Below are positions 2,082-63,099 of a stretch of DNA of 64,000 bases, in pieces (position 1 is the stretch's first letter; each line of letters opens with the position of its first letter). The notes below the pieces were generated by a model. The model saw only the letters and a list, made by a program, of their open reading frames with translations, did no database searches and was not told the DNA's origin. The stretch is from Candidatus Sumerlaeota bacterium. Lineage in GTDB: Bacteria > UBP6 > UBA1177. The translations under genes and the position numbers were made by a program. Where the stretch lies: NCBI GenBank assembly GCA_007132725.1, contig SLOD01000011.1, positions 117 through 64,116 on the forward strand, written 5' to 3'.

Positions 2082-3350
2082 TTAATCGTTTTGTGTTTTG
2101 CTATATATCCGTCTCAATTTGTTTTTAAGTCTTTCCATCACTTCAAAGTTAAAAACAGGGCTTCTCCATGAAGAAAGAGAATTGTTTTGGTACATCGGTT
2201 CCTTGTCAAAGTCAAGAAGACTTTCTTTTAAATGTTTGTCATAGAGAACTGTCCCGGGAACAGGAGAAAATTCGCTCAAATAAGGTCTGGCTCCAATGTT
2301 ATCAACAAAATCTATTGTCTCCTCTACCTCCTCTACAGCCTGTCCCGGAATACCGCAAAGAAGATATACCCCTATCTTATCTTTCCCGGATCCTGACATT
2401 TTTAACATCTCAACAACATTTACCAACTGATCCCTGTCTGTTTTTCTGTCAAAGCGGTTAAAAGCTGTTTCAAATCCGAATCTCAGTTGGGGAAAGTCAT
2501 AAAGATTAAAAATTTTGCATAATTCGTTATCCACTTCTTTTAAATGAAGACCGTTGGGGGTGTGAAAACGGTACTTTTCCGGGGGAATATTTTTTAAAAA
2601 TTCTTTTAAATATCTCCCCTTCTCAAGAAGAAGAGCATCATCATAAAAAGCTACATCCGTGAAGCCGGTCCTTTTATTCCATGCTTCAAGGTCATACACC
2701 TGCTTTTCAATGTTTTTTATCTTAACTTCAGGATAAAACAGGGAACTTGAACAGTAGGAACATCTGTTGGGACATCCTTCCACAAGGTTTGCAGGAAAAA
2801 ACTTCAAATGATCAACATATCTTGATCCTGTTCCTGTGATCTCTTCATTCACAGGATATTTTCCAGTCACTGCGTGCACACCCTTAATACCATTAAAAAC
2901 ATTAGGAATAAGTGTTGCCGCTGTTCCCCCAACTTCAATTTCAACCCCGGGGAACACCTTTAAGACAATATCTATTGTTGAGATTACCGATCTGTACCAG
3001 TAGGTCATGCCGGTTGATATTAATATTTTATCAGGGACATCTGTTTCCATAAGGAGTTTTTTGATCTTGTTGTCTGATGCTCCGAAACGGTTGAATTTTC
3101 GTCTTACAAAAAACAGTTCTTCAGGTTTATCCACTTCTTTTTTCCAATAAGAATGTCTTCCCCACGATCTGTAAGCGGGAGGGTAAAAGCCGTTTTCCCC
3201 TATTTCTCTGCCGTCAAGAAAATTTAAATAAGTTACATCATCCCCTCTTTTTTCAAAGTGCTCCATTATCCTTAATAATCCTAACGGAGCTGCCCATAAA
3301 TTATAAGCAGTAAAATCTTCCACAGGAGGATTTATAGTGAGTACCTTCAT
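2082..3350 (-). CDS. B12-binding-domain radical SAM enzyme.
   Basis: CPNRCSYCS (CxxxCxxC) radical SAM cluster motif; N-terminal region resembles a cobalamin-binding Rossmann domain. Ends 14 nt upstream of the REC-Hpt gene. Confidence 0.7.
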   Translation of the reverse strand: MKVLTINPPVEDFTAYNLWAAPLGLLRIMEHFEKRGDDVTYLNFLDGREIGENGFYPPAYRSWGRHSYWKKEVDKPEELFFVRRKFNRFGASDNKIKKLLMETDVPDKILISTGMTYWYRSVISTIDIVLKVFPGVEIEVGGTAATLIPNVFNGIKGVHAVTGKYPVNEEITGTGSRYVDHLKFFPANLVEGCPNRCSYCSSSLFYPEVKIKNIEKQVYDLEAWNKRTGFTDVAFYDDALLLEKGRYLKEFLKNIPPEKYRFHTPNGLHLKEVDNELCKIFNLYDFPQLRFGFETAFNRFDRKTDRDQLVNVVEMLKMSGSGKDKIGVYLLCGIPGQAVEEVEETIDFVDNIGARPYLSEFSPVPGTVLYDKHLKESLLDFDKEPMYQNNSLSSWRSPVFNFEVMERLKNKLRRIYSKTQND

Positions 3351-3360
3351 TTATTTAATG

Positions 3361-3771
3361 TCAGATCTTGAAATTATCGGGAAAAAGTTCACTCAGCAAA
3401 ACCCTTTTTTCGATTTCACCATTATCCGCATTAACAAGAACGATCTCCATGCCGGGATTAAAGTCGGCAAGCACCTGTCTGCAAATTCCACAAGGAAAAA
3501 CAGCTTTCCCGTCCAGAACAGAGGCTATAACTATTGCAATAATAGTTTTATCTCCATTGGTTACAGCATTGAACAATGCCGTTCTTTCAGCACAAACCGT
3601 TGCCCCGAAAGAAGAGTTTTCAACATTAACACCGTCATACATTTGTCCCGATTCTGTTATAATAACAGAGCCAACCTTGAACCCCGAATAAGGAGCATGT
3701 GCATTTTTTCTTATTTCAACAGCCCTTTTAACAGCTTTTTTCAATATGAGATCATCCATCTTTCCGCTCAA
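3361..3771 (-). CDS. cdd: Cytidine deaminase.
   Basis: 136 aa with the zinc-binding CAE...PCGxCRQ motifs (CAERTALFNAV, PCGICRQVL). Confidence 0.85.
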   Translation of the reverse strand: MSGKMDDLILKKAVKRAVEIRKNAHAPYSGFKVGSVIITESGQMYDGVNVENSSFGATVCAERTALFNAVTNGDKTIIAIVIASVLDGKAVFPCGICRQVLADFNPGMEIVLVNADNGEIEKRVLLSELFPDNFKI

Positions 3772-4624
3772 GTAAAAAAGATATGAAACGGGTCATCAGT
3801 TGAGAAAATTTTTCTTCAACAAGAGCTGCATTTTCCGTTACCTCTTCATGTGTGAGAGGATCGGAGGATATTCCCGCAGCTTTATTTGATATAAAACTTA
3901 TACCGGCAACCTCAATTCCCGCATGTTTGGCAGCTATAACTTCCGGAACTGTTGACATTCCAACAGCATCCCCTCCTGTTTTTTCGATCATACGGATCTC
4001 AGCAGGCGTCTCAAAAGAGGGGCCGGTCACTCCAGTATAGATTCCTTCTTTTAAATGGAGAGATATCTCCTGTGCAGCTTTTTTAAGTAAAAGTCCAAGC
4101 TTTTTGCTGTATACATTTGACATATCAGGGAATCTGTCACCAAACTGATCTAAATTTCTGCCTATCAAAGGGTTTGTTCCCATCATATTGATATGATCCC
4201 TTATGATCATAAGATCCCCTGCATTAAAATCCCGGTTTACTCCTCCGGCCGCATTCGTTACTATCAGCTTTTTTATCCCAAGTTTTATCAAAACCCTGAC
4301 AGGAAAAACAACCTCCTCCATTTGATAGCCTTCATAGTAGTGTATTCTTCCCTGCATTATCCAGAAAGTTTCAGAACTATCTCTGAACCTTGCAAGAACA
4401 AGCCTGCCCTTGTGTCCTGTTACTGATGAAACCGGAAAGTCCGGTATATCCCCGTATGATATTTCAAAAACATTTTCTGTTTTTTCAGCAAAATTTCCTA
4501 ATCCGCTTCCCAATATTACAGCAACATCGGGAAGAGAGTATTCATATTGAGCTGTTTTTTGCTTTATGAACTCTACAGCATTTAAAATTTTTTCCATTAT
4601 CCCACCACTGGCATCATATCTCAT
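3752..4624 (-). CDS. punA: Purine nucleoside phosphorylase (PNP/MTAP family I).
   Basis: GSGLG phosphate loop and MSTVPEV...ISNKAAG core. Likely true start at MEKILNAV (about 4597). Confidence 0.75.
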   Translation of the reverse strand: MRYDASGGIMEKILNAVEFIKQKTAQYEYSLPDVAVILGSGLGNFAEKTENVFEISYGDIPDFPVSSVTGHKGRLVLARFRDSSETFWIMQGRIHYYEGYQMEEVVFPVRVLIKLGIKKLIVTNAAGGVNRDFNAGDLMIIRDHINMMGTNPLIGRNLDQFGDRFPDMSNVYSKKLGLLLKKAAQEISLHLKEGIYTGVTGPSFETPAEIRMIEKTGGDAVGMSTVPEVIAAKHAGIEVAGISFISNKAAGISSDPLTHEEVTENAALVEEKFSQLMTRFISFLLERKDG

Positions 4625-6033
4625 TATAAATATCTGTAGAAAGCCCTGTAAGCTTTAAATGTGTGGTAAATATCAGCTTTGGAAGCAACCTCTAATGGAG
4701 CGTGCATTGAAAGAAGAGGAGTGCCGCAGTCAACAACATCCATGCCATATTCAGCAATGAACATCGCGATTGTTCCACCACCACCTTGATCCACTTTACC
4801 AAGTTCAGCTGTCTGCCACTTCACACTGTCCTTATTAAAAGCACTGCGGCATTCTGCAACAAATTCAGCATGAGCCTCATTTGAATTGCTTTTCCCTCTG
4901 ACGCCGGTAAATTTAGTGAGACATACACCCCACCCTATTTTGCCGGAATTCATTTTTTCCATTGTTCCGGCCCATTCAGGGTCTATGCCGGCATTTACAT
5001 CGGCACTGAGAAATTTACTGTCAGCAAGATTGTTTATAAGCGTGTTGTAGTCCCCCTTGCCGTAAAGGTTTATTATTTTATTTACAGCCCGCTCAAGAAT
5101 GTTTGAATTTGCACCCGCATTCCCTTTCGACCCGATCTCTTCTTTATCAAAAAACATTGCGATCTTATTCTTTTTTGATTTTCCACAATCAAAAAGAGCT
5201 TCCATCGCAGCATAGGAACACACTCTGTCATCCTGACCATGTGCTCCGACAAAACTTCTATCAAAACCTATATCTCTTGCCTTGCCTGAAGGAACCAACT
5301 GAAGCTCGGAAGATACAAAATCTTCTTCAGAAAAGCCGTATTTGGAGTTGAGATGATCCAATATAGCCAGTTTTACGGCATCTTTTTCATATTTAAATTT
5401 ATACGGTATGGAGCCGACAAGAATGTTAAGATTTTCACCCTCTATTACTGTTCCGGCTTTTTTCTGCATTTGATCCTGGGCAAGATGAGGAAGAAGATCG
5501 TTTATTGTAAAAACCGGATCTTTATCATCTTCTCCTATACATACATCTATCTTTTTGCCGTTTTCAAGGATAACAACCCCGTGAAGAGCAAGAGGTCTGG
5601 TTACCCACTGATATTTTTTTATTCCACCATAATAATGAGTTTTGAAATAGGCCATATCCTCCGCTTCGTAAAGCGGATAACCCTTAAGATCTATCCTCGG
5701 AGTATCAATATGTGCCCCGACCATTAAAAAACCATCCTTGAATTTTGTATCATTTATTTCAGCAAGAACACATGATACATTGTCAAAGTTGATAAAGAGC
5801 TTTTTATCTTTCGAGGTTGCCTTATCAATATTGACATAACCTTGTTCAGAAGCTTTTTTTTCTATGTACTTGACAGCCTCCCTTTCAGTTTTAGCATTAT
5901 CCAGAAAAGATTTATAGCCTTCAGAAAATTTCATAATTACATTAAGCTCTTTACCGGAGATACCTTCCCATCCCGATTTTTTAGTGTAAGTCAACTTTTT
6001 CGGGTCATTGTTTTTTTCTTTTTTCTTCATCAT
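4624..6033 (-). CDS. M18-family (aspartyl/aminopeptidase 1-like) zinc aminopeptidase.
   Basis: 469 aa with HIDTPR...D...EE...H-type metal ligand spacing typical of the M18/M42 clan. Confidence 0.6.
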   Translation of the reverse strand: MMKKKEKNNDPKKLTYTKKSGWEGISGKELNVIMKFSEGYKSFLDNAKTEREAVKYIEKKASEQGYVNIDKATSKDKKLFINFDNVSCVLAEINDTKFKDGFLMVGAHIDTPRIDLKGYPLYEAEDMAYFKTHYYGGIKKYQWVTRPLALHGVVILENGKKIDVCIGEDDKDPVFTINDLLPHLAQDQMQKKAGTVIEGENLNILVGSIPYKFKYEKDAVKLAILDHLNSKYGFSEEDFVSSELQLVPSGKARDIGFDRSFVGAHGQDDRVCSYAAMEALFDCGKSKKNKIAMFFDKEEIGSKGNAGANSNILERAVNKIINLYGKGDYNTLINNLADSKFLSADVNAGIDPEWAGTMEKMNSGKIGWGVCLTKFTGVRGKSNSNEAHAEFVAECRSAFNKDSVKWQTAELGKVDQGGGGTIAMFIAEYGMDVVDCGTPLLSMHAPLEVASKADIYHTFKAYRAFYRYL

Positions 6034-6836: not shown

Positions 6837-7253
6837 ATGGACAGAAAAAAAATGACCGTACTGGTTCTTGACGATGAGGAAAATATTCTTTCCAGCCTTA
6901 AAAGAATACTTGAAGGATGTGGTTATACTGTCATTACAAAAAGTAAGCCGGAAGAGGCTATTGATTATGTACGGAACAATGTTGTTCATATTGCATTGCT
7001 GGATATCCTTATGCCGAATATGGATGGAATAACAGTCCTCAACATAATTAAAGAGATCAGTGGACTGACTCAGGTTGTAATGATGAGTGCATACAGCACC
7101 GTGGATCGAATAGTATCAGCACTTGAAAACGGAGCCAATGATTTTCTGCTAAAGCCTTTTGATAATATTGATGCTTTTATTTCCATCATAGAAAATTCAG
7201 AAAGCAAACTTTTAAGATGGCAGAAAATATTATCTGAAACCGGAGCAATTTAA
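6837..7253 (+). CDS. Stand-alone response-regulator receiver (CheY-like).
   Basis: VLVLDDEEN...LLDILMPNMDG...S...KPF signature. Strong RBS GGAGGataataATG. Confidence 0.8.
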   Translation: MDRKKMTVLVLDDEENILSSLKRILEGCGYTVITKSKPEEAIDYVRNNVVHIALLDILMPNMDGITVLNIIKEISGLTQVVMMSAYSTVDRIVSALENGANDFLLKPFDNIDAFISIIENSESKLLRWQKILSETGAI

Positions 7254-7254
7254 T

Positions 7255-8526
7255 TTGACGACCCACCCTCAGTCAAGGCTAACCCATTTTCCCATACAGG
7301 ACGTTAATCTGCCCTCTTCTTTTGCGGCAGATTTTTTAAGTGAATTATCAAAAGCCACAGAAAAAGATAAAAACGGAGAAAATTTACATCACAGTTTAAG
7401 AGTCGCTGTCATTGCGCATAAAATAGGGAAAAAAGCCGGTTTAGATAAAAAATCTCTCAAAGAGCTGTTTTTTTCTGCTTTACTCCATGATATAGGCGGA
7501 GTGATCACCACTCAACATGTGATGGAAGATATTGTTCAAACACCCGATATTTTGGGTCAGAAAAATGACTTTTTTATTTTTTCACATCCTCATAGAAGTG
7601 AAACCATGTTACAAAGCTTTCCAACTTTCAGGGCAATTAGTGAAGTTGTAGGATCCCATCACGAATTTTTTGATGGAAGCGGCTTTCCAGCAGGTCTGTC
7701 AGGAAAGAACATCCCTTTTTTATCACGAATTATCAGAATTGCCGATACTGTTGATATATTGTTGAGACTCCACACTTTCAATAAGTCAGATGAACTACTC
7801 GGGCTTCTGAATATCATTGCGGGAGAAGAATTTGATCCTGATATTTATAAAATTTTTGTTGAAATTGTGACCGGAACAAATTTGCTTGAAAAATTAAAAA
7901 CTGCTGAAGTGGTTGAAGCTGAAATCTCTCAAATAAAAAAAACTATGGAAGATGACTATTATTTCTCCTCTCCGGATACAATAAACCGGTTTTTTAAAAC
8001 TGTTGCTATTTTAACAGACAATTTAACATCTTTTGAAGATAATCACTCTTTAAGAGTTGCGGAAATTTCTGTTCAAATAGCTTATCTTCTTGATCTGGAT
8101 CAGGAAGAAGTGCTATCTATAAGGTGGGCTGCATTTCTTCACGATATTGGCAAACTTGTCGGGAATAGAGAAGTATATACTAAAAAAGAGAAGCTATCAG
8201 AAAAAGAGTGGTTAATGATAAGAACCCATTCTCAAAGATCCTACGACATTATTAATAAAATAGGGGGCATGAAAAAAATTGCCTACTATATTTTACACCA
8301 TCATGAAAACTTCGATGGAACAGGATATCCTGAAAATCTTTCCGGAAAAAGAATACCTCTTGCATCAAGGATTCTCAGAGTGGCTGATGCTTTCGATGCC
8401 ATGACATCAAACAGAATATATCATAGAAAGAAAGATTGGCAAAGAGCATTGAAAGAGTTGAGAAAATATTCTGGAACTCAGTTCGATCCGGAAATAGTTG
8501 AAACTTTTTTCGCTAATATTTCGTAG
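7255..8526 (+). CDS. Tandem HD-GYP domain protein (c-di-GMP phosphodiesterase family), TTG start 1 nt after the REC stop.
   Basis: Domain 1: HHSLRVA...LHDIGG...HHEFFDGSGFP (GYP degenerated to GFP). Domain 2: NHSLRVA...LHDIGK...HHHENFDGTGYP...D (canonical). Confidence 0.75.
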   Translation: MTTHPQSRLTHFPIQDVNLPSSFAADFLSELSKATEKDKNGENLHHSLRVAVIAHKIGKKAGLDKKSLKELFFSALLHDIGGVITTQHVMEDIVQTPDILGQKNDFFIFSHPHRSETMLQSFPTFRAISEVVGSHHEFFDGSGFPAGLSGKNIPFLSRIIRIADTVDILLRLHTFNKSDELLGLLNIIAGEEFDPDIYKIFVEIVTGTNLLEKLKTAEVVEAEISQIKKTMEDDYYFSSPDTINRFFKTVAILTDNLTSFEDNHSLRVAEISVQIAYLLDLDQEEVLSIRWAAFLHDIGKLVGNREVYTKKEKLSEKEWLMIRTHSQRSYDIINKIGGMKKIAYYILHHHENFDGTGYPENLSGKRIPLASRILRVADAFDAMTSNRIYHRKKDWQRALKELRKYSGTQFDPEIVETFFANIS

Positions 8527-10729: not shown

Positions 10730-13700
10730 TTGGGGCTGATGAGAGCTTATGCTCTAAGAAAATTAACTGAATGTTTGGTTAAAATTATTAATATAACTGT
10801 ATTGGAGGCAATCTTGAAAAAGTTCTTCTTCCTCTCTTTAGTTCTCTTTTTATCAATCTTACCGGAATATCTATCGGCAGATAATGTTGCGGTGTTCCCT
10901 ATCGGAGCCAGCCAAAGAAGCGAATGGAGTCTTGCAAAAGATGTTGACAGGATCATTGACAGAGATCTTCATAAAATAAGTGCTGCCAAAGCCTTGTCTT
11001 TTAGAGAAATCCTTTCTGCCGCTAACAGGAAACTTCTTGCAAGCTGCAGAGCTGATCTTAACTGTCAAAGGGAGATTTCCACAAAAGCAGGACGAAGAGA
11101 TATAGACTTTTTCCTTTTCTCAAGGCTCAGATTTGCTGAAAACAGAGATGTAGTTGTACAGACATATCTTTTTGATAGAAGATACAGCCGGCTTGAAACG
11201 GTTACACTTGAGATGGATTACAATATTTTTGCGGATGAAATAGCAGATAAACTTTTCCAAGCATGGAACAACATGCTGTCCAGACATGTTACCAAAGCAG
11301 CCCCTCCACCTCGCCAAAGGTTCGATGATGATTTTGATGATGATTTTGACAGGAGAGACAGGAGAAGAGAGAGAGAAGATTATGGAAGACCCGCCCCCAG
11401 AACATCGGAAGCTATAATTGCAGAAGGTTTCAGAGCTTATGCTGACGGCAATCTAAGACAAGCGAGATCCCTTTTCCAAAAAGCCGCTTCAAGAGATGTT
11501 GTTGCTCAAAGGCTTTTTAACGCTGTCGATGAGATCGGAAAATATTTAGCAAGAGCAAATGCATCCATAAAGGCGAAAAGATATGAAGAAGCTATTCCAA
11601 TTATAGCTAAAGCGGAAAGCCTTGATGAATCAATAAAAACCCTTGGTCAGAAATACGGAGTATTTTATCAGGAACCTGTCGAAAGAAAAACTTACCTTGA
11701 ACCTACACCAAGAGACATGAAGGTTGTAGAGTCTATACATAAAAGATATGCAGGAAAAACTGAAAAAGCAAGGAGAGACAGGGCTGCCGGAATATCGGAG
11801 ATAGACAAGTGGATAAACCAGAGGATCCGGGATAGAGAAGCAAAGATGAAGCAGTTTGTTGTTGATTCCGAAAACGCTGCTGCCCAGGAAAAGAAGGAAC
11901 TTGCTGAACTGAGAAAAGAAATAAAAGAGCTTCGCCACAAATGGGAACAGGAAGATGATGAAATAGAACAGAAAATCGTTGCTCTTGAAAGCAACCTGAC
12001 TTTGCTTGAACAAAGGGTTAAGGGTGTTGTAAAAGTATCAACAGAAAAAGAAGAAAAAGCAAGGAAGGCGGAGCTCGCAGCAGTAGATAAAAAATATAAG
12101 GAGCTTTTGAAAAAACTTCGTGAAGAAAGAAATGCTTTTTATGAAAAGCAAAAAGCGGAACTTGAAGAAGGTTCAAAAAATGTAGAAGCAAAAGTTGCGA
12201 AACTCCAGAAGCAAAAAAGTGAAAATGAGGAAGCTATAAGAAAGATAGATAAAAAGATAGAAGCTGCTACCAGAGAGTTTGAAGAATCAGAAAGAAAATA
12301 CTCAAGAGGAACTGAAGGGGTTAGGCTGAAACAGGAAGACGAAGACAGAAGATTCGCCGTTGAAGTTGAGAAGGAATATCAGGCTAAATTCGATGAATTA
12401 AACGAAAAATTAAGAGCTTATGATAAAAAAGATGCGGAGAGAAGAGAAGCCCTGAAGGTATTTGACAGAGAAATAGAAGACTTCCTTATGAAAAATGTGG
12501 AAATTATGTCTGCGTTTCAGGAAGATGTTGAAAAAGAAAGAACCGTTCTTGATAAAAAGTATAAAGGAAAGAAAGAAACCGCCGCTTCAGATGCTGAAAA
12601 AGAGTGGAACAAAAAACTTGAAGACTTTACTTCAGAAAAAAATGAGATAGAAGCCAAAATAGCAGAAGAAGAAACTCCGGCTTTAAAGAAACAGTTGGCA
12701 CAAATTGAAAAAAAGATATCAGCCCATGAAGAAAACAAAGACTCGTTTATCGCAGAAAAAGTTATGCAGGTGGAAATGGAACATGAGATGAAGTCTGCAG
12801 AACTTGATATGAAGCTTGTAAACAGGAACAACGAGCTTCAAAAAGAAAATAATGCTTTCAGAGATAAAAAACTGGCTGAAAAAAAGAAAGCCGAAGCCGA
12901 CTACAAAAATTTCCTCAAAAGAAAAGAGGATTTTAGAAAAAGCATAGAACGACAGGTAGAAATGGCACAGAAAGACAGAGACAATAAAATCGAAAAACGT
13001 AGAAAAGAAAGAGGTGCTCTTGCCACTACTTGGGAAAAAGAAGCAGAAAAAAGAAAACTTGCTTTTGAAAAGTCTATACAACCTGACAGAAATTTAAGGG
13101 AAAAACTTATTAAAGCAAATGAAAAGATCGACGATGATATTGTAAAAATCAATGATGCCTGGGAAAATCGGAGTCAAGATATAAGAATAGAACACCATAC
13201 CTCCTCAGAAAAATTTGAGGAAAATTGGAAAGAGCGATTCTCAAAAACAGAAGAAGAGTTTAAAGAAGCCAGAGAAGCTGTCGAAGACAAGTATGCTGAT
13301 AAACAACTGCAAGCCAGAGAAGCCCAGAAACGACAGAGAGTTGAATGGGAAGAAGCGATACAGGCTTTAAATGAGAAAAAAGCAAGGAATCAAAAAGAAA
13401 GACAAGCTATACTTGATCAAAAAAGGATGGAATGGGAAGAAAGACAGGCTGAAAGAAAAAGAGAAGAAGAGCAGAGAAAAATTGACAGAGAAAACTTTGC
13501 CGAAGAAATGAAAAGACTGAATACAGAAGATCGGGCTGAAGCAGCTATGAAGCGGAAAGATGTTGAAAGAAGATTCAAAGAAGCCACTGGCGATATATAT
13601 CAAGCTCAAATTGACGAAATCCGCAGCAAATTTCCTGACGATTTCAGATACACCAGAAGAAGAGAAGTTGTAGGAGTAAGAGCAAGCGAAAATATCCAGC

Positions 13701-13993
13701 TATTAAAAGCCAGCGCTCTTGCTCAAAGCGGACTTTTAAAATTACAGGACAGAGATATTCTCAATGCAAAAAGGCTTTTTGCCGAAACTCTGTTCCTTGA
13801 CAGTAACAACAAGATAGCACTGGATGGTATGAGATCCATTGAACTTACTGCGAAATCAATGTACTGGGAAGCTTTCGGAATGAGAGAAACAGACAGGGCC
13901 AAGGCAAGAGAAATATTTTCCTTGCTGGTACAAACACTGATGCCGTCCAGCGAATATTTTGTCAGAGCTAAAATTGCACTCGAAGACTTATAA
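10730..13993 (+). CDS. Large secreted or periplasmic coiled-coil protein of ~1060 aa. Probable true start is TTG 10814 (MKKFFFLSLVLFLSIL signal peptide) with GGAGG at 10804-10808. Architecture: ~130-aa N-domain, DDDFDDDFDRRDRRRERE linker, ~700 aa of E/K/R-rich heptad coil, C-terminal TPR-like helical domain.
   Basis: Signal peptide and extreme charged-coil composition read from the translation. No catalytic motifs. Its 3' end overlaps the dxr 3' end convergently by 6 nt. Confidence 0.55.
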   Translation: MGLMRAYALRKLTECLVKIINITVLEAILKKFFFLSLVLFLSILPEYLSADNVAVFPIGASQRSEWSLAKDVDRIIDRDLHKISAAKALSFREILSAANRKLLASCRADLNCQREISTKAGRRDIDFFLFSRLRFAENRDVVVQTYLFDRRYSRLETVTLEMDYNIFADEIADKLFQAWNNMLSRHVTKAAPPPRQRFDDDFDDDFDRRDRRREREDYGRPAPRTSEAIIAEGFRAYADGNLRQARSLFQKAASRDVVAQRLFNAVDEIGKYLARANASIKAKRYEEAIPIIAKAESLDESIKTLGQKYGVFYQEPVERKTYLEPTPRDMKVVESIHKRYAGKTEKARRDRAAGISEIDKWINQRIRDREAKMKQFVVDSENAAAQEKKELAELRKEIKELRHKWEQEDDEIEQKIVALESNLTLLEQRVKGVVKVSTEKEEKARKAELAAVDKKYKELLKKLREERNAFYEKQKAELEEGSKNVEAKVAKLQKQKSENEEAIRKIDKKIEAATREFEESERKYSRGTEGVRLKQEDEDRRFAVEVEKEYQAKFDELNEKLRAYDKKDAERREALKVFDREIEDFLMKNVEIMSAFQEDVEKERTVLDKKYKGKKETAASDAEKEWNKKLEDFTSEKNEIEAKIAEEETPALKKQLAQIEKKISAHEENKDSFIAEKVMQVEMEHEMKSAELDMKLVNRNNELQKENNAFRDKKLAEKKKAEADYKNFLKRKEDFRKSIERQVEMAQKDRDNKIEKRRKERGALATTWEKEAEKRKLAFEKSIQPDRNLREKLIKANEKIDDDIVKINDAWENRSQDIRIEHHTSSEKFEENWKERFSKTEEEFKEAREAVEDKYADKQLQAREAQKRQRVEWEEAIQALNEKKARNQKERQAILDQKRMEWEERQAERKREEEQRKIDRENFAEEMKRLNTEDRAEAAMKRKDVERRFKEATGDIYQAQIDEIRSKFPDDFRYTRRREVVGVRASENIQLLKASALAQSGLLKLQDRDILNAKRLFAETLFLDSNNKIALDGMRSIELTAKSMYWEAFGMRETDRAKAREIFSLLVQTLMPSSEYFVRAKIALEDL

Positions 13994-49898: not shown

Positions 49899-50987
49899 TT
49901 AAAAATTGTTAAAACGGTTATCCGTGGTTACCGCATTTAAAATAAATCCGACCATCACGGAATAGGACATAAGTGCACTTCCACCATAGCTGATAAATGG
50001 CAAAGGTACCCCTTTATTCGGTAACGAAGAGGTAACGACACCTAAATTAATAAGCGTCTGCACAGCAAGCATAATAACAAAACCCGATATGAGGTAGAAT
50101 CCGAATCTGCTGTAAACTGATAGAGCAAAGTAACTGCCGATCATAAACATTAATACAAAAAGAGAAATTAAAACCAAAGATCCTGCGAAACCAAACTCTT
50201 CGCCAATAATTGAATATATAAAATCGGTATGCGCCTCCGGCAGATACCTCATTTTCTTTTGACTGTTCCCAAACCCCACCCCGGTTTTCCCTCCTCTACC
50301 TAAAGCGATTTCGCTTTGAACCTGCTGATATCCGGAAGACTGTCTGTATTGCCAGGGATCAAGAAACGACCTGATCCTTTCTACCCTATACGGCTTCATA
50401 AGTATCAGAAAAGAAAACCCTATCACAGCTAGAACTCCGAGAACGACTATATATTTGAACCTCATACCGCCCATTAAAAGAAGAAACAAAGCTACAGAAA
50501 AAATTATGAGTCCTGTTCCCAGATCTTCAAAAGCAATAAGAGACACTATTATCAATACAACAAAGAACGGATATATCAATTCCTTTAAAAGTCCGATCCT
50601 CTCTCTTTTATTACAAATCACCTCCGCCATATAAAAAACTACTACTATTTTTGCAAACTCAGAAGGTTGTACCATCATAAAACCAAGATTGATCCATCTC
50701 TTTGAGCCGTTAACCTCAGTCCCTACAAGGTAAGTGGCTATCAATACAAGTATAATGAGTACAACAGCGTATTTTATCCAGGTCCTGACAGCATCTATAT
50801 TCACAATGTAGCACAAAGCCATTGCAGACAAAGCCATCATAAGGTTTATTATCAACGATCTGAGAATGGGAAAGACAGACTCGTTAACAGGATGAACATT
50901 GAAAACCCTTATATTAAACACCATAACTGTTCCGAAGATCACCAAAAGGAAGAAAATGGAAAAATAAAGTTTCAATGCTTTAGTCAT
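49899..50987 (-). CDS. ftsW: SEDS-family peptidoglycan glycosyltransferase FtsW.
   Basis: 10-TM; C-terminal LPFISYGGSA. Confidence 0.85.
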   Translation of the reverse strand: MTKALKLYFSIFFLLVIFGTVMVFNIRVFNVHPVNESVFPILRSLIINLMMALSAMALCYIVNIDAVRTWIKYAVVLIILVLIATYLVGTEVNGSKRWINLGFMMVQPSEFAKIVVVFYMAEVICNKRERIGLLKELIYPFFVVLIIVSLIAFEDLGTGLIIFSVALFLLLMGGMRFKYIVVLGVLAVIGFSFLILMKPYRVERIRSFLDPWQYRQSSGYQQVQSEIALGRGGKTGVGFGNSQKKMRYLPEAHTDFIYSIIGEEFGFAGSLVLISLFVLMFMIGSYFALSVYSRFGFYLISGFVIMLAVQTLINLGVVTSSLPNKGVPLPFISYGGSALMSYSVMVGFILNAVTTDNRFNNF

Positions 50988-52282
50988 TCAGACATCTCTT
51001 TTTTTAACCCGAAAACTTTGTTTTTAAAATCATTGCCTCTTTCAATATAGTTTTTATACCAGTCAAAACTGGAACATGCCGGAGAAAAAAGAACAACACC
51101 GCGGTTTTCAGACAATTTGAAAGATATTTCAACAGCTTCCTGCATAGACTCGGCTTCAACAAGTGGAAAAAAGTCTTCAAAACAGGGCTTTATTCTACTT
51201 TTAGCTTCTCCGATAAGAACAACTCCTTTGCACCTTGTTTCTGCAAGTTCTCGAAGAACCTCATAACTCCCTCCTTTGTCAACACCGCCAAGTATAAGAA
51301 CAACCTCTTTGTCAGAGTATCCCGACAAAGATTTTTCGGTTGCAGCGACATTAGTCCCTTTTGAATCATTGATAAACACTACATCGCCAATTTTATCTAC
51401 AAACTCCATCCTATGGGGAAGTGGGGTAAAATTGTTAACAGCCTTTCTTATGATCTCAAAATCCTTAACCCACTCGGAAACAGCAAGAACAGAAGCCATT
51501 ATGTTTTCAACATTATGAACTCCTTCAAGTTTTGTCTCTTTCACAAAAATTTCATCGTTTCCGAGATAGATCACTCCATCCCTGTAACCAATTTCCCCTG
51601 TAAAGTCTAAAGAAAAGAATTTCTTTTCAACAGGAATCGCCCTGCAACCGGCAACTAATGCTTCGTCTCTGCCGTTCAGGACAAGAATTCCATCCGGACG
51701 AGTAAGTTTAGCCAACTTGACTTTCGTCATCACATATTCTTCGTAAGTTACATATCTGTCGAGATGATCAGGACTTACATTCAGGATCACAGAAACATCA
51801 GGGTTTACACTTGACAATGTTTCAAGTTGAAAAGAACTGATCTCTATTACAAGAAATTCATAGTTTTTACCTATTGCCTGAAATACGGGAGTTCCAATAT
51901 TTCCACAGAGGAAAGTGGAAAATCCTGCCTCTTTGAGAAGAGATGAAATAATGGAAACCGTAGTACTTTTTCCGTTTGTTCCTGTGACAGCAATAATTTT
52001 TTCATTTTTAAGATAACGACCTGCAAACTCGATATCACCTATCACTTCCACACCTTTTTCTCTTACACTGGCAACGGCAGGATGATCCGGAGAAAAGCCG
52101 GGGCTCACAATAGCAAGATCATAAACCGTATCCGGATCATAACGGTTCAGTTTTCCGTACAATATATTTCCATCTATAGCAGCAGGATTATCATCATAAA
52201 CAAATACAGAAAAACCCTTTTCTATAAGAAATTCAGCCACAGACGAACCGGAAACTCCCATTCCGAACACGACAGCTTTCAA
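50984..52282 (-). CDS. murD: UDP-N-acetylmuramoylalanine--D-glutamate ligase.
   Basis: Mur ligase P-loop GTNGKSTT; N-terminal Rossmann fold GMGVSG. Confidence 0.85.
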   Translation of the reverse strand: MKAVVFGMGVSGSSVAEFLIEKGFSVFVYDDNPAAIDGNILYGKLNRYDPDTVYDLAIVSPGFSPDHPAVASVREKGVEVIGDIEFAGRYLKNEKIIAVTGTNGKSTTVSIISSLLKEAGFSTFLCGNIGTPVFQAIGKNYEFLVIEISSFQLETLSSVNPDVSVILNVSPDHLDRYVTYEEYVMTKVKLAKLTRPDGILVLNGRDEALVAGCRAIPVEKKFFSLDFTGEIGYRDGVIYLGNDEIFVKETKLEGVHNVENIMASVLAVSEWVKDFEIIRKAVNNFTPLPHRMEFVDKIGDVVFINDSKGTNVAATEKSLSGYSDKEVVLILGGVDKGGSYEVLRELAETRCKGVVLIGEAKSRIKPCFEDFFPLVEAESMQEAVEISFKLSENRGVVLFSPACSSFDWYKNYIERGNDFKNKVFGLKKEMSE

Positions 52283-52291
52283 GCGAACCTC

Positions 52292-53572
52292 CTATTCAAG
52301 AAGTTCAAAGATTTCTTCCAACCTGTTACTCCTTGAACCTTTTAAGAGAAAAAGTCCTGTCTCAGGCAACAAAGGAACGACATCCTTGATATTGCCGAGA
52401 AAGACCACCCTTTTCTCATTCAAAAAACAGTGCTTAATTTTTTCGAACTCGCTTCCTATCAAAAAAGCCCTCTTTAACAATTTAAGAGTTTTTAAATAAT
52501 TTACAAGTTCTTGGTGCATTTTTTTTGATAATTCACCTAATTCGAACATACTTCCCAAAACCATACATATATTTTCATCCCCTTCTTCAATTGCTTTTTT
52601 ATAAAATCCGGCTATAGATCTCAGCATGGAATCCGGGTTGGCATTATAACAGTCAACTATAAATTTTCTTTCACCAACTTGTTTCGTTTCCCCCCTCATT
52701 TCAGGAATTTTGCTTTTTTTCAGCACTTCATTTAACTTTTCAGCTTTTCCTTCAACAACTTTAACAACTTCGGCTGCCGTCAAAAGATTGTCCACTAAAT
52801 ATTCCGGATATTCTTTAAATTCATTATAGCGGGATTTAAAACTATCCTGTTGATAAACTGCTATCTTATTAGAGCGTTCCTTATTTTTATCGATCCATTC
52901 TTTTACATATCTGTTGCTTATATCAGCAACAATAACTCCCCCGGTACCTTCAAAAAGCTCTAGTTTAGCATCGGCTAAATCCTGTTGTGACTTGAAGTTG
53001 CCTATATGAGCACTGCCTATGTTCGTGATCACAGAGTAATCAGGGTGAGCAATCTCGGAAAGTTTTTTTATCTCTCCTTTATGGTTCATTCCCATTTCAA
53101 GAACCATGTAATCGATGTTCATAGGGAGATTAAGTATAACCAGTGGAAGACCGATATGGTTATTCAGGTTACTCCAGGACCGGTAAACAGTTTTCCCGGA
53201 CAAAGAAAGAAATGTGGTAAGAAATTCTCTTGTAGTTGTTTTTCCATTGGAGCCAGTTAAAGCAATGACCTTTCCTCTGTACAAACTTCTCCTTTTTTTT
53301 GCCAATAGCGATAAAAATTCCAAAACATCGGGAACCTTTATAAACATTTCACTATCATGATCCCCTTCGTCCCCGACACAATAAACACCTTTTTCAAGGA
53401 GTTCTCCTATGTAACGGTGTCCATCATCATTTTCTCCCCTGAATGCAAAAAACAGAGATCCCTTTACCGCTTTCCTTGAATCAATGACAACACTTGATAT
53501 GAGTCCGCAGGGAATATCTTTTATATCAGCTACCTCTTGCAGGGTTGTTTTAAGTAATTCTGTGTCAAACAT
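52292..53572 (-). CDS. murF: UDP-MurNAc-tripeptide--D-alanyl-D-alanine ligase.
   Basis: GSNGKTTT; C-terminal LLKGSRS. Confidence 0.8.
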   Translation of the reverse strand: MFDTELLKTTLQEVADIKDIPCGLISSVVIDSRKAVKGSLFFAFRGENDDGHRYIGELLEKGVYCVGDEGDHDSEMFIKVPDVLEFLSLLAKKRRSLYRGKVIALTGSNGKTTTREFLTTFLSLSGKTVYRSWSNLNNHIGLPLVILNLPMNIDYMVLEMGMNHKGEIKKLSEIAHPDYSVITNIGSAHIGNFKSQQDLADAKLELFEGTGGVIVADISNRYVKEWIDKNKERSNKIAVYQQDSFKSRYNEFKEYPEYLVDNLLTAAEVVKVVEGKAEKLNEVLKKSKIPEMRGETKQVGERKFIVDCYNANPDSMLRSIAGFYKKAIEEGDENICMVLGSMFELGELSKKMHQELVNYLKTLKLLKRAFLIGSEFEKIKHCFLNEKRVVFLGNIKDVVPLLPETGLFLLKGSRSNRLEEIFELLE

Positions 53573-58400: not shown

Positions 58401-58880
58401 TTAATCCCCTTTCATATTTTTCCTTACAGAATTCATGTATCCAAAAACCATATCGAAATCTGAGTCATCAACAGCTTCTGCACTTTCCAGACATTCTTTT
58501 GACCATATCTGAAGAGTTTCTATACTGCCCAGCAAAACAACATCTTTTTTTATTTCGCTATAATCTATCAGAGTTTTGGGCAATCTGAGTCTATTATGGT
58601 TGTCCAGTTCTATTGTTTCCGCTGCAGCAACATACCACCTTATAAACCTGTTTCTTATCCTTCCCTCGGGAAATTCATAAATTGTTTTCATTCTATCTTT
58701 CCACCCTTCGTTGGAAAAAACTTCCAGGTACTTCTCTTCTGAAGATAGTCCTCTGGACACCACTACTCTGTTACTTTCTCCAAGGCCCAAGGGCTCATAC
58801 CATACTGCAGGAAACGGAATTCTTCCCTTTGCATCCAGCTTATAGTCCTTTCTACCATGGAAAAGAGACTCTGAAAACAT
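58401..58880 (-). CDS. mraZ: Transcriptional regulator MraZ.
   Basis: Duplicated DxxGRxxxP motif (LDAKGRIPFP; second half similar). Confidence 0.8.
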   Translation of the reverse strand: MFSESLFHGRKDYKLDAKGRIPFPAVWYEPLGLGESNRVVVSRGLSSEEKYLEVFSNEGWKDRMKTIYEFPEGRIRNRFIRWYVAAAETIELDNHNRLRLPKTLIDYSEIKKDVVLLGSIETLQIWSKECLESAEAVDDSDFDMVFGYMNSVRKNMKGD

Positions 58881-58947
58881 TTGTCACCACTCTCTAGCCA
58901 TTTGATTACACCTTTTACCACAAAAAGTTTATGAAATCAATTTTTTT

Positions 58948-60726
58948 TTGTTTTTTTTAATTTATTTTTCCATATTCCATCTAAAATTTGATTTCGTATG
59001 TTTATTGACATATATTTATTATGTAGAAGAGAGTTTTAAATTGTTTTATGCGGGAGTGTTTATGGGAATTAAGGTAGGTGAATATTTTTTAAAAAAAGGG
59101 ATTATAACTGAAAACGATCTTAAAGAAGCTCTTGATTACCAGAAAAAAAGCAAAGGATACCTCGGTGAGATTCTTATGAAGCTGGAACATGTCAGTGAAA
59201 TGGATCTACTACAGTATCTTTCCAAACGGTTTAATGTTCAGTTTATTTCCACAGAAAAAATGGAAAAGATGGCTGTCCAAAAACCTTCTGACATAATCCC
59301 GGAAAAACTGGCTATTGAAAAGAACATCTTTCCTTTGAAATATTCATTCAACAGCTTCAGACTCACTCTTATTACCCATGAGCCCCAAAATATAGCTCTT
59401 TTTGATGAACTGAAAATCATTCTTACCGGTGTAAACACGATCATTCCTGTAGTCGCTGTTTCAAACGCAGTTAAAGCTTTAATTTACAAACAGTACCGCA
59501 GTGATCTTCAAGCTTTTGACAGACTGGTAAAAAAAGGCGTTGACCTCAACCTTATGACTCCGGGCAACGAAAAAGTCCTTGGGTATGACGATGCTGTCAC
59601 CGATGTCGGAAGTGTGATAGACGATATACAATCCGGAAGCGACGAAAAAAATGAAGAAAACTACAAAGACACTTTCTCAATGATAGTAAATCAAGGAGAA
59701 ATTCTAAGTATGACCGAAGGTTCTTCGGTAACTGCATCTATGGTCAGCCACATGCCAAGCTGGGTAAAAGAACAGCGGGGACAAATGATGGAGCTGCTCC
59801 GCATATTTGCCAACCTTCTTGACAGTTACAGGGAACGATCGTTTTTCGGACATACTCAGAGGGTTGCTGTCTTGTCTCAGGAACTTGGCAAAGAGCTGAA
59901 TCTATCAGAAGTTGAATTACATGACCTCCTTATTGCATCTTATCTCCATGATGTTGGGAAAAAACACCATCTTACGGCAATAAATATTCCTGAAAAAGTT
60001 AACTTGGAAAGGTTTATAAGATATTCAGAGATCGCAGCTAAAATTTTTGCATCTGTAGATTTTTCAAGACTGACAATGAGCTATCTGGCAAACATGTATG
60101 AAACTTACAATGGACGCGGACTGCCACATGGCTTGAGACTGGATGAAGTTCCCACAGGGTCTCAGGTTCTGCTATTAAGCGATTCTTTTGACTACATGAC
60201 AAGAGTATCAAAAATTCCGGTGCCGACTGCTTTTAATCAGTTGGCCGAGCTGAGATTTTTCTCAGAACGACTTATAGAAGCATTAAAAAAAGTTCAACAG
60301 ATCGATGCTATGCCATCATCTTCAAACAATCTTCCACATCTTGAAGCACTCATTATCAGCAGAAAAAGATTTGACCTTGATGATATAGCTGAAAAGCTCA
60401 ATCGCCTGAATGTAAAAACATACAGGGCAGAGCAAGTAGAAATAGCCGCTCAAATAATAAAAGAAAAAAAGGGGGCTTTAAACTTTATTATCTGTGATTT
60501 GGATATGCCGGAATCCGCCATTTCTCCTTTGAAACTTCTTGCTGCCATGAAACGAAAAGAAGATATTTCTGAAATTCCATTTTATTTCTTTTCACAACAT
60601 AACATTGAAAAAAATATTATAACTACAGCAAAAGCATTAAAAGCTTCCGGAGTATTTCCTAACTATCATCCCATTGAAATGACAAGAAAGATCGTTGAAG
60701 AAATTGTCAGACTTAAAAAATCTTAA
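58948..60726 (+). CDS. MshEN-like (T2SS-E N-terminal, candidate c-di-GMP-binding) domain + degenerate HD-GYP-like HD domain + C-terminal REC-like domain. Likely true start is ATG 59062 (MGIKVGEYF) with RBS GGGAG.
   Basis: KVGEYFLKKGIITENDLKEALDYQ fits the MshEN c-di-GMP motif RLGxxLLxxGxIxxxxLxxALxxQ. HD: HTQRVAV...YLHDVGKKHH...YNGRGLP...SDSFD. C-terminus: FIICDLDMPES... Confidence 0.6.
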   Translation: MFFLIYFSIFHLKFDFVCLLTYIYYVEESFKLFYAGVFMGIKVGEYFLKKGIITENDLKEALDYQKKSKGYLGEILMKLEHVSEMDLLQYLSKRFNVQFISTEKMEKMAVQKPSDIIPEKLAIEKNIFPLKYSFNSFRLTLITHEPQNIALFDELKIILTGVNTIIPVVAVSNAVKALIYKQYRSDLQAFDRLVKKGVDLNLMTPGNEKVLGYDDAVTDVGSVIDDIQSGSDEKNEENYKDTFSMIVNQGEILSMTEGSSVTASMVSHMPSWVKEQRGQMMELLRIFANLLDSYRERSFFGHTQRVAVLSQELGKELNLSEVELHDLLIASYLHDVGKKHHLTAINIPEKVNLERFIRYSEIAAKIFASVDFSRLTMSYLANMYETYNGRGLPHGLRLDEVPTGSQVLLLSDSFDYMTRVSKIPVPTAFNQLAELRFFSERLIEALKKVQQIDAMPSSSNNLPHLEALIISRKRFDLDDIAEKLNRLNVKTYRAEQVEIAAQIIKEKKGALNFIICDLDMPESAISPLKLLAAMKRKEDISEIPFYFFSQHNIEKNIITTAKALKASGVFPNYHPIEMTRKIVEEIVRLKKS

Positions 60727-60729: not shown

Positions 60730-63099
60730 CTAAAAAAGTATAACGGAGCACCCTGAAGAGGTTTTCTGCTTATCATCATCTTCATGTAGCTGACAATTAC
60801 CATAGTGGCAGTACCCTTCTTTTCCATCATCTCTGATACATTTATTCCAGTTCTGGGAACTGTCTATCAAATATAAAAAGTCTTTACGGTTGTTATCGCA
60901 GACAACTTTATTGCAGGGAAGCTCTTCCGGCAACTCTCTATCGTTTCCGGCACAAACTCCATTTGAACATTTAGTGTCAACAGTACAAAAAAGATTGTCT
61001 TCACAAGTTACACCTTCATTTGCCGGCTCTTTTTTGCAGAGTCCAGTTTCATCATCACAAAAACCTGAAGAACAAAAATCATCAAGATGCGAGCAGTCAG
61101 TTTCCCCCCACTCCACACATTCTCCGGCTAAACATTTCATCCCCTCATAACATTTAGATCCAGGTTCTCCGCAATATGTTCCATCGGCTCTGGGCTCTTC
61201 TACACAACTTTTTGTTTCTTCATCACACAAACTGACAGTACATGGATTGCCTGTATCCGACTGACATGGCAAAGCATCAAACTCTCTTTCACAGTAACCA
61301 TTTACACAGCTTCCTTTACCACTACAAAAGTTCCCATCGTCACATTCGGTATCACTCGAACACTTGATCATATTTAAATTAAGAGAAGGGTCTCCCAGAT
61401 AATTGATACCGTACTTCATGGTCAGCAAAACAGAGCTGTTTGACCAATTTTCTTTGTTTTCCTGAAGGACTACAGCAGGATAAAGGTTGTTTGTGAGAGC
61501 GTTAACAAATTCAACCCCATAAGAAAAAAGATCCTGAGAAGAAAGGCTGTAGTTTTCCCATATAGATCCGTAAGCTACCTGCGTAGATGTTATAACACCT
61601 ACTGCCGAATTCAACAGAGTAGTATGTCCAAGATTTCTCCTGTTTTCAACTCTTCCGTTCAAGCAACTTCCTTGAAAAACAAAGGGTGAAGTATGGTCGC
61701 CAAAGCCCCGGGTCATATCAGAATCAACAAAAGTTTCACTCTTCATGTCCCACGAGCTGGGGTACCCAACCCCCTTTCTATCTCCCAGCCATATCGTCCT
61801 GACAGTATAAGATGACATTCCATGACCCATCCAGTAAACGATCCCATAGCTATCATTCCACGATTTCAGCATAGAATCATAGTTCAGCCCCTCTTTAGTG
61901 TCGGCATAAATTGATGGAGATGCCCCTTCGGTCTCAACAAGTATCTTTGTTTTAAAACCTGGAGGCAGGATATAGTTTTCGATGAACTTTGCAACATATG
62001 CCCCATCCATTTTAGGTGTAAAAGGTTGTCCGTCCTGATTTTCATAATAAGCAATAGAGGTGGGGAAAAGCAACTCTCTTCTGTATTCTGCCAAAGAAGG
62101 ACTTTCTTTTATATATCTTATCGTTCTGGCAAGAACCTTATCAACATTTTCGACTTCATCGTTATAAAAAGGAATGCGTCCGACTACCAACTCAAAAGCC
62201 AGAGTTATATCATCAGCACGTTCTCCGGGGATACCATTATTGTTTTTGTCTATATCTTCCGTTATTTCACCATAGAAAACATCGGTAGCTGTTTCCTCAT
62301 AAGCTTCTATCACTTCTCCTCTGTTAGGTCTGGCAACTATCATGGGAATATCGCTTCCCTCAGGGGAGGGGTCTCCGATGATCAGAAGAAAGTAGTAGTC
62401 TTTATAAACGGACCTCAACCATGCTCTTATTGCCTCAGCTCTTTCAAGTCCGGTCAAGTCCCCTGCTTTATAATCGCTTTCTGTCGCAACATCAACTCTG
62501 AAACCCTGTCCCCTTTTTGTGCCGATAAAGTTTACCAGTTCTCTTGATTCTCTTACAACCAGATCAGAGGTTAAAATTAAGAGAGAGTTTTTCTTTTCAA
62601 CGGGAGAAAGGGGTTGCATTGTCCTTTGCTCAAAATGCAACCTTATCTTTCTGATAAAGACAATTTCATCATCTGCTGTAGGGATCACAGGGTATAAAGT
62701 TAACGGGAACTCTTTACGGTCTCTTCTTAAAGTAGGAGGTCTTAAAAAATAAAAGTTTTTGACAGAAGGGAGTAGGTCCCCTTTGGTGGAAACAGGCATT
62801 ACTCTTTTCATACTGCTCAGTCTATAGAGCGGACGACCTCTTTTGAGATTTCCGGGAGCTTTGATATTTTCTTTTTCAAGAATTTCAACCTTTACAACCT
62901 TGGAGGGAAAAGAAAATCGTTTGTACGGCAATATTATTTTTTCGCCTGTACCATCAAGCAGATAGCCATCAATAAAAGGAATGACTTCCCCCCCTTTTGC
63001 CTGAAAAACAGGCTCGGGGATCTCAATATCCAGAGTAAAGCTGTAAAGAGAAGAAAAGCAAAAGAAAGTCAAAATAATAAAAATAATTTTCATAAACAT
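60730..63099 (-). CDS. Secreted peptidase C25 (gingipain/caspase-like fold) family protein with a C-terminal cysteine-rich repeat region.
   Basis: Signal peptide; ILTSDLV...YYFLLIIGD...WMGHGMSS...FVFQGSC consistent with a His/Cys dyad. The last ~200 aa carry >35 Cys in CxxGxC-type repeats. Confidence 0.45.
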   Translation of the reverse strand: MFMKIIFIILTFFCFSSLYSFTLDIEIPEPVFQAKGGEVIPFIDGYLLDGTGEKIILPYKRFSFPSKVVKVEILEKENIKAPGNLKRGRPLYRLSSMKRVMPVSTKGDLLPSVKNFYFLRPPTLRRDRKEFPLTLYPVIPTADDEIVFIRKIRLHFEQRTMQPLSPVEKKNSLLILTSDLVVRESRELVNFIGTKRGQGFRVDVATESDYKAGDLTGLERAEAIRAWLRSVYKDYYFLLIIGDPSPEGSDIPMIVARPNRGEVIEAYEETATDVFYGEITEDIDKNNNGIPGERADDITLAFELVVGRIPFYNDEVENVDKVLARTIRYIKESPSLAEYRRELLFPTSIAYYENQDGQPFTPKMDGAYVAKFIENYILPPGFKTKILVETEGASPSIYADTKEGLNYDSMLKSWNDSYGIVYWMGHGMSSYTVRTIWLGDRKGVGYPSSWDMKSETFVDSDMTRGFGDHTSPFVFQGSCLNGRVENRRNLGHTTLLNSAVGVITSTQVAYGSIWENYSLSSQDLFSYGVEFVNALTNNLYPAVVLQENKENWSNSSVLLTMKYGINYLGDPSLNLNMIKCSSDTECDDGNFCSGKGSCVNGYCEREFDALPCQSDTGNPCTVSLCDEETKSCVEEPRADGTYCGEPGSKCYEGMKCLAGECVEWGETDCSHLDDFCSSGFCDDETGLCKKEPANEGVTCEDNLFCTVDTKCSNGVCAGNDRELPEELPCNKVVCDNNRKDFLYLIDSSQNWNKCIRDDGKEGYCHYGNCQLHEDDDKQKTSSGCSVILF

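Follow-up and report, generated by a model that had tools for sequence, protein, structure and literature searches.

The 64-kb window analysed here (the whole stretch of contig SLOD01000011.1 under study, from a Candidatus Sumerlaeota bacterium of the candidate phylum UBP6) contains a gene for a 554-residue protein, in which a predicted MshEN-type binding module for c-di-GMP (cyclic dimeric guanosine monophosphate) is fused to a degenerate HD-GYP-fold domain and a C-terminal receiver-fold domain. We consider it somewhat probable that this protein is a stand-alone cytoplasmic c-di-GMP effector acting through protein contacts. According to this model, the MshEN domain would bind one c-di-GMP molecule via two tandem 24-residue motifs, and binding would make the C-terminal module change its shape or its contacts with partners. 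The HD-GYP-derived domain of this module would be unable to build the two-metal centre for cutting c-di-GMP, the receiver-fold domain would not be phosphorylatable in the usual way, and the output would be a protein-protein interaction with a partner protein. Approximately 70 full-length orthologues were found, all of them from metagenome-assembled genomes (MAGs); conservation is given below for an alignment of 53 full-length orthologues (33-77% identity). An AlphaFold2 model built from these 53 sequences has a mean predicted local distance difference test score (pLDDT) of 79 and shows three folded domains and a disordered linker. The predicted template modelling (TM) score of the whole model is 0.45, too low for reading the arrangement of the domains relative to each other from it.

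Motif, profile and fold comparisons support that the protein carries a genuine MshEN-type module predicted to bind c-di-GMP. MshEN was defined as a 53-residue unit of two tandem 24-residue motifs and a five-residue spacer (Wang et al. 2016, PMC5013675). Motif I of the window protein fits the strict form of this motif, with K for R and V for L, as well as the relaxed form: the key positions (R, L, G, L17, L21 and Q24) read K, V, G, L, L and Q. No other stretch of the window, translated in all six frames, matches the motif; 30 shuffles yielded 0.03 matches on average. Among the orthologues, position 1 is K in 43 and R in 10, the glycine is kept in 53/53 and the glutamine in 51/53. A preliminary description of the window, made from the sequence alone, had recognised this match, albeit numbered one residue off (residues 3-26, in fact 4-27). 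It had also noticed a weaker second motif, which lies at residues 33-56 after the five-residue spacer and shows three departures. The NCBIfam model NF053729 ("53-residue c-di-GMP motif, MshE-related") matches residues 5-55 over its positions 2-52 of 53 with 54.1 bits (cutoff 38) and also matches 53/53 orthologues. Pfam PF05157 (T2SSE_N), the profile search suggested earlier, remained below threshold on the C-subdomain of the window protein (20.3 bits, threshold 23.1); the same profile matches 17/17 proteins of a wider alignment (A4) at E <= 0.01. With phmmer, the N-domains of PilB and PilF could be aligned over residues 4-153 (E 6e-13 to 3.5e-15) and Vibrio cholerae MshE over residues 4-66. 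The suggested comparison with the Vibrio complex bore the assignment out: in Foldseek searches the model of the N-terminal domain (pLDDT 77-93) matches MshEN with bound c-di-GMP (5HTL) at a TM score of 0.76 and a root-mean-square deviation of 3.0 over 143 columns, and 9G1W at 0.67.

The C-terminal module starts with an HD-GYP-fold domain, which is well above the gathering score of Pfam HD_5 (49.6 versus 27.2 bits) and whose Foldseek matches are 9RBZ, 4R8Z, 3TM8 and 4MCW (DvhD, PA4781, Bd1817 and PmGH), DvhD being the best. Residue-by-residue alignment to PmGH (4MCW) and V-cGAP3 (5Z7C) shows that the first-site metal ligands H264, H296, D297 and D377 are invariant in the family, in line with the H, HD and downstream D pointed out before. 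The second-site histidines of PmGH are replaced (H250 by Y321, H276 by M345, H277 by Y346), and these substitutions are family-wide, Y346 being present in 53/53, Y321 in 52/53 and M345 in 47/53 orthologues. The glutamate at the position of PmGH E185, a third-site ligand, is not conserved. H303 is invariant down to 33% identity. The stretch corresponding to HHE...GYP reads MYETYNGRGLP. It is degenerate, as had been described, but the register of the earlier reading (YET...GRGLP) has to be corrected by one residue, HHE corresponding to M345-Y346-E347 and GYP to G353-L354-P355. The tyrosine of GYP is leucine in the window protein and tyrosine in 11/53 orthologues. The KPG motif, which holds the second guanine, is absent, and the region reads IPEKVN. 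A census of HD-GYP domains (bioRxiv 2021.11.05.467447) takes HHExh(D/N)GxGYP and the substrate-binding KPG as defining motifs; judged by these criteria, the domain is not a canonical c-di-GMP phosphodiesterase. Since the full ligand set for two or three metals, KPG and the GYP tyrosine are missing, "sensor rather than hydrolase", as proposed in the preliminary description, is the better reading of this domain.

The linker between the MshEN and HD-GYP-fold domains has pLDDT values below 50 at residues 163-203 and 215-239. Between these segments lies a conserved island, FSMIVNQGEI (window positions 59674-59703, residues ~205-214), in which I208 is invariant and F205 and N210 are nearly so. This peptide may be a docking or autoinhibitory peptide. 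The C-terminal domain, described before as REC-like, is a receiver by fold: it scores 22 bits with the Pfam receiver profile (threshold 30.2), and Foldseek places it at TM scores of 0.82-0.87 to the five-stranded alpha/beta fold of DivK, RR468 and CheY. An aspartate is found at the acceptor position (D479) in 51/53 and a serine at S511 in 52/53 orthologues. The acidic pair is replaced by S433-R434-K435, and the position of the conserved lysine is taken by H536 (44/53). Ordinary phosphotransfer to this domain is unlikely.

A non-catalytic HD-GYP domain next to a pseudo-receiver would point to an output by protein-protein interaction, for which precedents exist. HnoD, a dead HD-GYP protein, acts as an inhibitor of a phosphodiesterase that is its partner, ECA3548 combines a dead HD-GYP domain with PilZ receptor domains, and the c-di-GMP receptor of DvhD is the dead HD-GYP domain itself (PMC13090378). 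Moreover, cyclic-dinucleotide signalling is, to judge from predicted genes, present in the UBP6 lineage, because a canonical HD-[HD-GYP] protein is encoded in the window and a REC-GGDEF protein upstream of one orthologue. The former (7255-8526, + strand) has a first domain with HD, HHE and GFP and a second, fully canonical one with HD, HHHE and GYP. It starts 4 nt after a canonical CheY-like receiver gene (6837-7250, + strand) in another reading frame. The preliminary description had listed these as a pair of REC and tandem HD-GYP at 6837-8526; the domains are as described, and the locus is read here as two genes. A frameshifted fusion like RpfG would be the other possibility for 6837-8526, whose likeness among enzymes is to the V-cGAP type. 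The REC-GGDEF cyclase (GGEEF) is found in locus L023 (RA.bin96, UBP6; positions 2202-5900), where an OmpR-type regulator, a hybrid histidine kinase and the cyclase lie directly upstream of the orthologue in the same direction.

Several observations weigh against the effector model. Diguanylate cyclases, for which a check had been suggested, and EAL genes were sought by tblastn with three queries (two of the GGDEF kind, one of them PleD, and one of the EAL kind) in the window plus every locus, ~500 kb in total; the only GGDEF gene is that of L023, and no diguanylate cyclase was found in the 64-kb window. No function of the UBP6 proteins or of the related MXAN_2809-type proteins is reported in the literature found, in which MXAN_2809 is mentioned only in a transcriptome list. 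Motif II has a tyrosine where an arginine stacks on the second guanine, and its turn glycine, present in 29/53 orthologues, is missing from the window protein (E42). Finally, invariance of H264, H296, D297, D377, H303 and Y346 and near-invariance of Y321 are unexpected for a purely inert scaffold and leave room for a working, altered active site.

This last point leads to the alternative of a phosphohydrolase that is regulated by c-di-GMP and has had its metal centre remodelled, which we regard as rather unlikely. MshEN would then be the allosteric switch and the substrate a nucleotide (c-di-GMP, pGpG, cyclic GMP-AMP (cGAMP) or another); H...HD...D would hold one metal, and Y321, Y346 and H303 would stand in for the lost histidines. 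One-metal HD hydrolases need, as a minimum, the ligands H...HD...D. The signature H...H[D/E]...HLT...YE...GxGxP persists in a much larger family of proteins carrying DUF4388, and the conservation down to 33% identity exceeds the need of an inert scaffold. Many activities are listed for the HD superfamily (bioRxiv 2021.11.05.467447). However, according to the same census two or three metals are required by every HD-GYP domain with demonstrated cleavage of c-di-GMP or cGAMP, and the substrate contact by KPG and the GYP tyrosine are lost here. The tested proteins with substituted HHE (HnoD, ECA3548 and DvhD) are inactive, but these have also lost the HD dipeptide, which is retained in the window protein. 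It is decidedly improbable, in our judgement, that the HD domains of the UBP6 family and the DUF4388 relatives go further and form a distinct catalytic subclass with a tyrosinate-ligated, c-di-GMP-switched metal centre. In such a subclass two second-site histidines would have been exchanged for the tyrosines Y321 and Y346, the new invariant histidine H303 would have been recruited, and the substrate or the chemistry would be different.

Another alternative concerns the MshEN domain, which might be a non-binding relic serving docking or oligomerisation only, comparable to XpsE and other non-binding N-domains of type II secretion system ATPases. The key positions of motif II read Y, L, G, L, L and R; the motif retains L34, G35, L49 and L53, and carries Y33 for arginine, E42 for the turn glycine and R56 for glutamine. 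It departs even from the relaxed motif at positions 1, 10 and 11 (Y33, E42 and H43), position 1 lying outside the relaxed set. In several DUF4388-type relatives, e.g. P0075 (KLLDALV), the motif-I glycine is clearly lost, and non-binding MshEN domains were recorded by Wang et al. (2016, PMC5013675). On the other hand, the NF053729 cutoff is exceeded by 16 bits, and the members of the UBP6 family keep the two glycines, G6 and G35, without exception and all hydrophobic contacts (V5, L20, L24, L34, L49 and L53) with few exceptions or none. The counts for motif II are Y 48/53, L 50/53, G 53/53, L49 52/53 and L53 52/53, with R in 26 and Q in 18 orthologues at position 24. Mutational data show which positions matter (Wang et al. 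2016, PMC5013675): G11L and G40I abolish c-di-GMP binding, mutating the hydrophobic leucine contacts lowers it more than 10-fold, and changes of Arg9 or Gln32 shift the affinity less than 5-fold. K4, Y33 and R56 should thus be tolerable, and a tyrosine may be able to stack on guanine like the arginine side chain. Since the backbone glycines and hydrophobic leucines critical in that study are conserved, we infer that the domain binds c-di-GMP and consider a relic improbable.

The orthologues were placed in UBP6 by a scan of one genome per species (UBA1177, UBA1196, UBA1209 and many rumen MAGs); some of the records carry automated Spirochaetales or Sumerlaeota labels. A profile search of 1.84 billion cluster representatives yielded at least 178 proteins (50%-identity clusters) at E <= 1e-30. 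Among the top 150 matches are 8 full-length representatives of the UBP6 type, the rest being mostly 640-920 residues long. More than 100 cluster representatives are of the MshEN-HD-GYP-REC-DUF4388 kind at E <= 1e-34, and of 12 proteins sampled from the search (11 of them longer than 640 residues), 11 consist of MshEN, HD, REC and DUF4388. In alignment A4, DUF4388 is found in 12/17 proteins and is absent from the window protein and four other short proteins (~540-555 residues). A common HD signature includes GH..V, LH[D/E].GK, HLT following the HD-G-K segment, xYE for HHE, and GxGxP. Its core (the first His, the His of HD/HE, HLT and the Glu of xYE) is common to the DUF4388 family, and Y346 is present in at least 90% of the 17 aligned proteins. 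Most of the DUF4388-bearing relatives (P0112-P0178, P0075) have a glutamate at the receiver acceptor position (IISEV) with the Lys-Pro kept, and many have lost the motif-I glycine of MshEN. The losses differ among the relatives, and different branches have therefore disabled different parts. The architecture MshEN-HD-GYP-REC-DUF4388 is listed for Myxococcus xanthus MXAN_2809 in Supplementary Table 4 of Wang et al. (2016, PMC5013675), the main text of which names HD-GYP and REC among the partners of MshEN. A census paper on c-di-GMP in Leptospira contains no MshEN-HD-GYP fusion.

Between 58881 and 60726 lie an intergenic spacer of 181 bp and the single + strand gene (Table 1). The ATG at 59062 is the real start, the product beginning with MGIKVGEYF, and a GGAG-like element stands at the position of the ribosome-binding site in most orthologous loci. 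The preliminary description had left room for a start downstream of the MshEN motif. The N-terminus M-x-x-[KR]-[VI]-G-[EQ]-Y-F is kept in 53/53 orthologues, in which G6, F9, G35 and E36 are invariant; therefore the true start lies upstream of the motif and a downstream start was rejected. An upstream TTG start at 58948, chosen by the open reading frame lister, was likewise rejected, as its 38 added residues overlap the conserved promoter and are without counterpart in the orthologues. An element TTG[AC][TC][TA]-N16-18-TAnnn[TC] is found 26-87 nt (usually 35-58 nt) upstream of the start in 31/35 loci, compared to 2.75% at random positions, and the remaining 4/35 loci have near-variants of it. 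This element accompanies the gene whatever the neighbour, and the orthologue stands alone in each context that was inspected gene by gene. The gene is monocistronic, with a predicted promoter of its own. No Rfam match to a riboswitch or other leader RNA and no tRNA was found in the whole window, and no terminators were found in the intergenic region.

Table 1. Positions of the features in the window (position 1 is the first nucleotide of the 64-kb stretch)
Feature	Positions	Strand	Remarks
Gene for the MshEN / degenerate HD-GYP / pseudo-receiver protein	59062..60726	+	554 aa, stop codon included
Complete MshEN (GSPII) domain	59062..59532	+	residues 1-157; four-helix N-subdomain and alpha/beta C-subdomain
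Predicted c-di-GMP-binding motif I	59071..59142	+	residues 4-27, KVGEYFLKKGIITENDLKEALDYQ
Five-residue spacer	59143..59157	+	residues 28-32, KKSKG; length as in V. cholerae MshEN
Predicted c-di-GMP-binding motif II	59158..59229	+	residues 33-56, YLGEILMKLEHVSEMDLLQYLSKR; Y, E and R at the non-canonical positions 1, 10 and 24
Variable linker	59533..59778	+	residues 158-239; predicted disordered apart from one short motif
HD-GYP-fold domain	59779..60297	+	residues 240-412; H264, H296-D297 and D377 kept
Receiver-fold domain	60334..60720	+	residues 425-553
Ribosome-binding site	59052..59056	+	GGGAG, 5 nt before ATG
Candidate sigma-70-type promoter of the 554-aa gene	58988..59016	+	TTGATT, 17 nt, TATATT; 45 nt upstream of ATG; consensus scan
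mraZ	58401..58880	-	divergent neighbour, first dcw gene; Pfam MraZ 55.4 bits, two stretches
Candidate -35 of the mraZ promoter	58935..58940	-	TTGATT; consensus resemblance only
Four GTGG-type repeats	58886..58921	-	GTGGT, GTGTA, TGGCT, GTGGT, ~10 nt apart; just upstream of mraZ

Across the spacer the gene is divergent from mraZ, the head of the dcw cluster (mraZ-rsmH-ftsI-murE-murF-murD-ftsW-murG-murC...ftsQ-ftsA-ftsZ), just as the preliminary description had it. Within the cluster (50984-53572, - strand), murD follows directly after murF without an intervening mraY, a gene that did not turn up among the scanned dcw genes. Elements resembling promoters were located in the spacer for mraZ and for the 554-aa gene, as had been predicted: the two promoters stand back to back, non-overlapping, ~47 nt apart across a T-rich tract. 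The candidate -35 of mraZ is conserved as TTGATT or TTGCAA in 6 aligned loci. On the mraZ side, and overlapping the candidate mraZ promoter, is a pattern of GTGG repeats, which occurs once in the window and in 0 of 100 shuffles and which shows no variation in its CCAC columns among 6 loci. Upstream of orthologues with a neighbour other than mraZ, the repeats are absent. The MraZ site of Escherichia coli consists of TGGGN repeats, to which the repeats of the window are similar. They also resemble the MraZ site of Mollicutes, direct repeats of AAAGTG[T/G] (PMC8475190). The repeats are probably the MraZ autoregulatory operator of UBP6, belonging to mraZ rather than to the 554-aa gene.

The neighbourhood was compared in 34 genome loci and 4 further contigs; the upstream region is readable in 36 loci (the window, 32 loci of the genome scan and 3 contigs found by protein look-up). 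Direct adjacency of a divergent mraZ is seen in 6/36 loci (the window, L001, L020, L021, L031 and L033). In 4/36 loci (L003, L005, L028 and L029) mraZ lies 1.4-5 kb away, and 26/36, the whole rumen clade included, have no mraZ in the upstream sequence available, which extends to 6-8 kb at most and is shorter in short loci. Three of the neighbours found instead were looked up: in L035 a conserved gene of unknown function that precedes DksA and PriA, in L038 MTHFR and in L037 an unknown gene. Conserved synteny with mraZ was rejected on the ground that direct adjacency is limited to these 6 loci. The preliminary description had raised the possibility of second-messenger input into division-cluster expression, i.e. 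that the protein feeds c-di-GMP levels into dcw expression via the promoter region common with mraZ. Even though the divergent layout across 181 bp recurs in L001, L020, L021 and L033 as well as in L031, a distant locus (37% identity), and so hints at an old adjacency, we consider such input most unlikely, since the adjacency is lost or interrupted in the remaining loci, the promoter travels with the gene, the two promoters do not overlap and the MraZ-type boxes are on the mraZ side, and no DNA-binding domain was found in the protein by Pfam, NCBIfam or fold search. The adjacency to mraZ is best read, from the gene orders compared, as synteny retained in part of UBP6 and not as regulatory coupling.

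On its other side the gene is followed by a convergent gene (60730-63099, - strand) for a 789-residue C25 (gingipain-family) peptidase-like protein with a signal-peptide-like N-terminus and a Cys-rich C-terminal region. Co-transcription with this gene is excluded by the convergent orientation. As a convergent neighbour the peptidase-like gene is seen in 9 related loci, which makes it more frequent than a directly adjacent mraZ. Elsewhere in the window, an open reading frame at 10730-13993 (+ strand) encodes 1087 residues with no Pfam match at E <= 0.001.

If the N-terminal domain binds c-di-GMP, the protein would be a conserved, single-copy c-di-GMP effector of the uncultured UBP6, which are common in rumen and digester metagenomes, and a compact representative of a large family of MshEN / non-canonical HD / pseudo-receiver proteins. 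With its strictly conserved tyrosines in place of metal-site histidines, it is a sensible subject for finding out what "degenerate" HD-GYP domains do. No route is opened from c-di-GMP to the transcription of division genes.

The window protein shares features with several known systems. With the V. cholerae MshEN (5HTL) and the GSPII domains of PilB and PilF it has in common the two-subdomain fold, the tandem motifs, the five-residue spacer and the Gly and Leu contacts. Unlike in MshE and PilB, no T2SSE/PilB ATPase is attached, and motif I begins with K and motif II with Y in place of the Arg of MshE. Pectobacterium ECA3548 (PilZN-PilZ-dead HD-GYP), Shewanella HnoD and Desulfovibrio DvhD likewise combine an HD-GYP fold with a substituted HHE, and ECA3548 has a dedicated c-di-GMP receptor domain in the same protein, which is PilZ there and MshEN here. 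In contrast to these three proteins, in which HD reads SQ, SE or HT, the HD dipeptide and the first-site ligands are intact in the window protein; KPG is absent. Regulators of the RpfG type (REC-HD-GYP) also unite a receiver and an HD-GYP domain in a single protein. In the window protein the order is reversed, the receiver being C-terminal, and both domains are degenerate; its best NCBIfam match of the RpfG type reaches 61.5 bits, compared to a cutoff of 400. The closest likeness in domain order is to the MXAN_2809-type proteins of Myxococcales, with which it shares the order of the first three domains, a non-canonical HD signature and a non-canonical receiver. It differs from them in ending at residue 554, right after the receiver, without DUF4388. 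Its receiver keeps the acceptor aspartate without the acidic pair and the lysine, whereas most of the long proteins have a glutamate acceptor with Lys-Pro kept. Furthermore, the UBP6 proteins all keep the motif glycines, which many long relatives have lost, and the phylum is a different one. The window protein is thus a short, DUF4388-less form of a catalogued architecture in a different phylum. The domain fusion itself is not new, as it was catalogued in 2016, and dead HD-GYP domains as receptors are likewise well established. The new elements are of modest weight: the confinement of a form lacking DUF4388 to one uncultured phylum, a c-di-GMP motif kept family-wide and a conserved pattern of His-to-Tyr replacements at the metal site.

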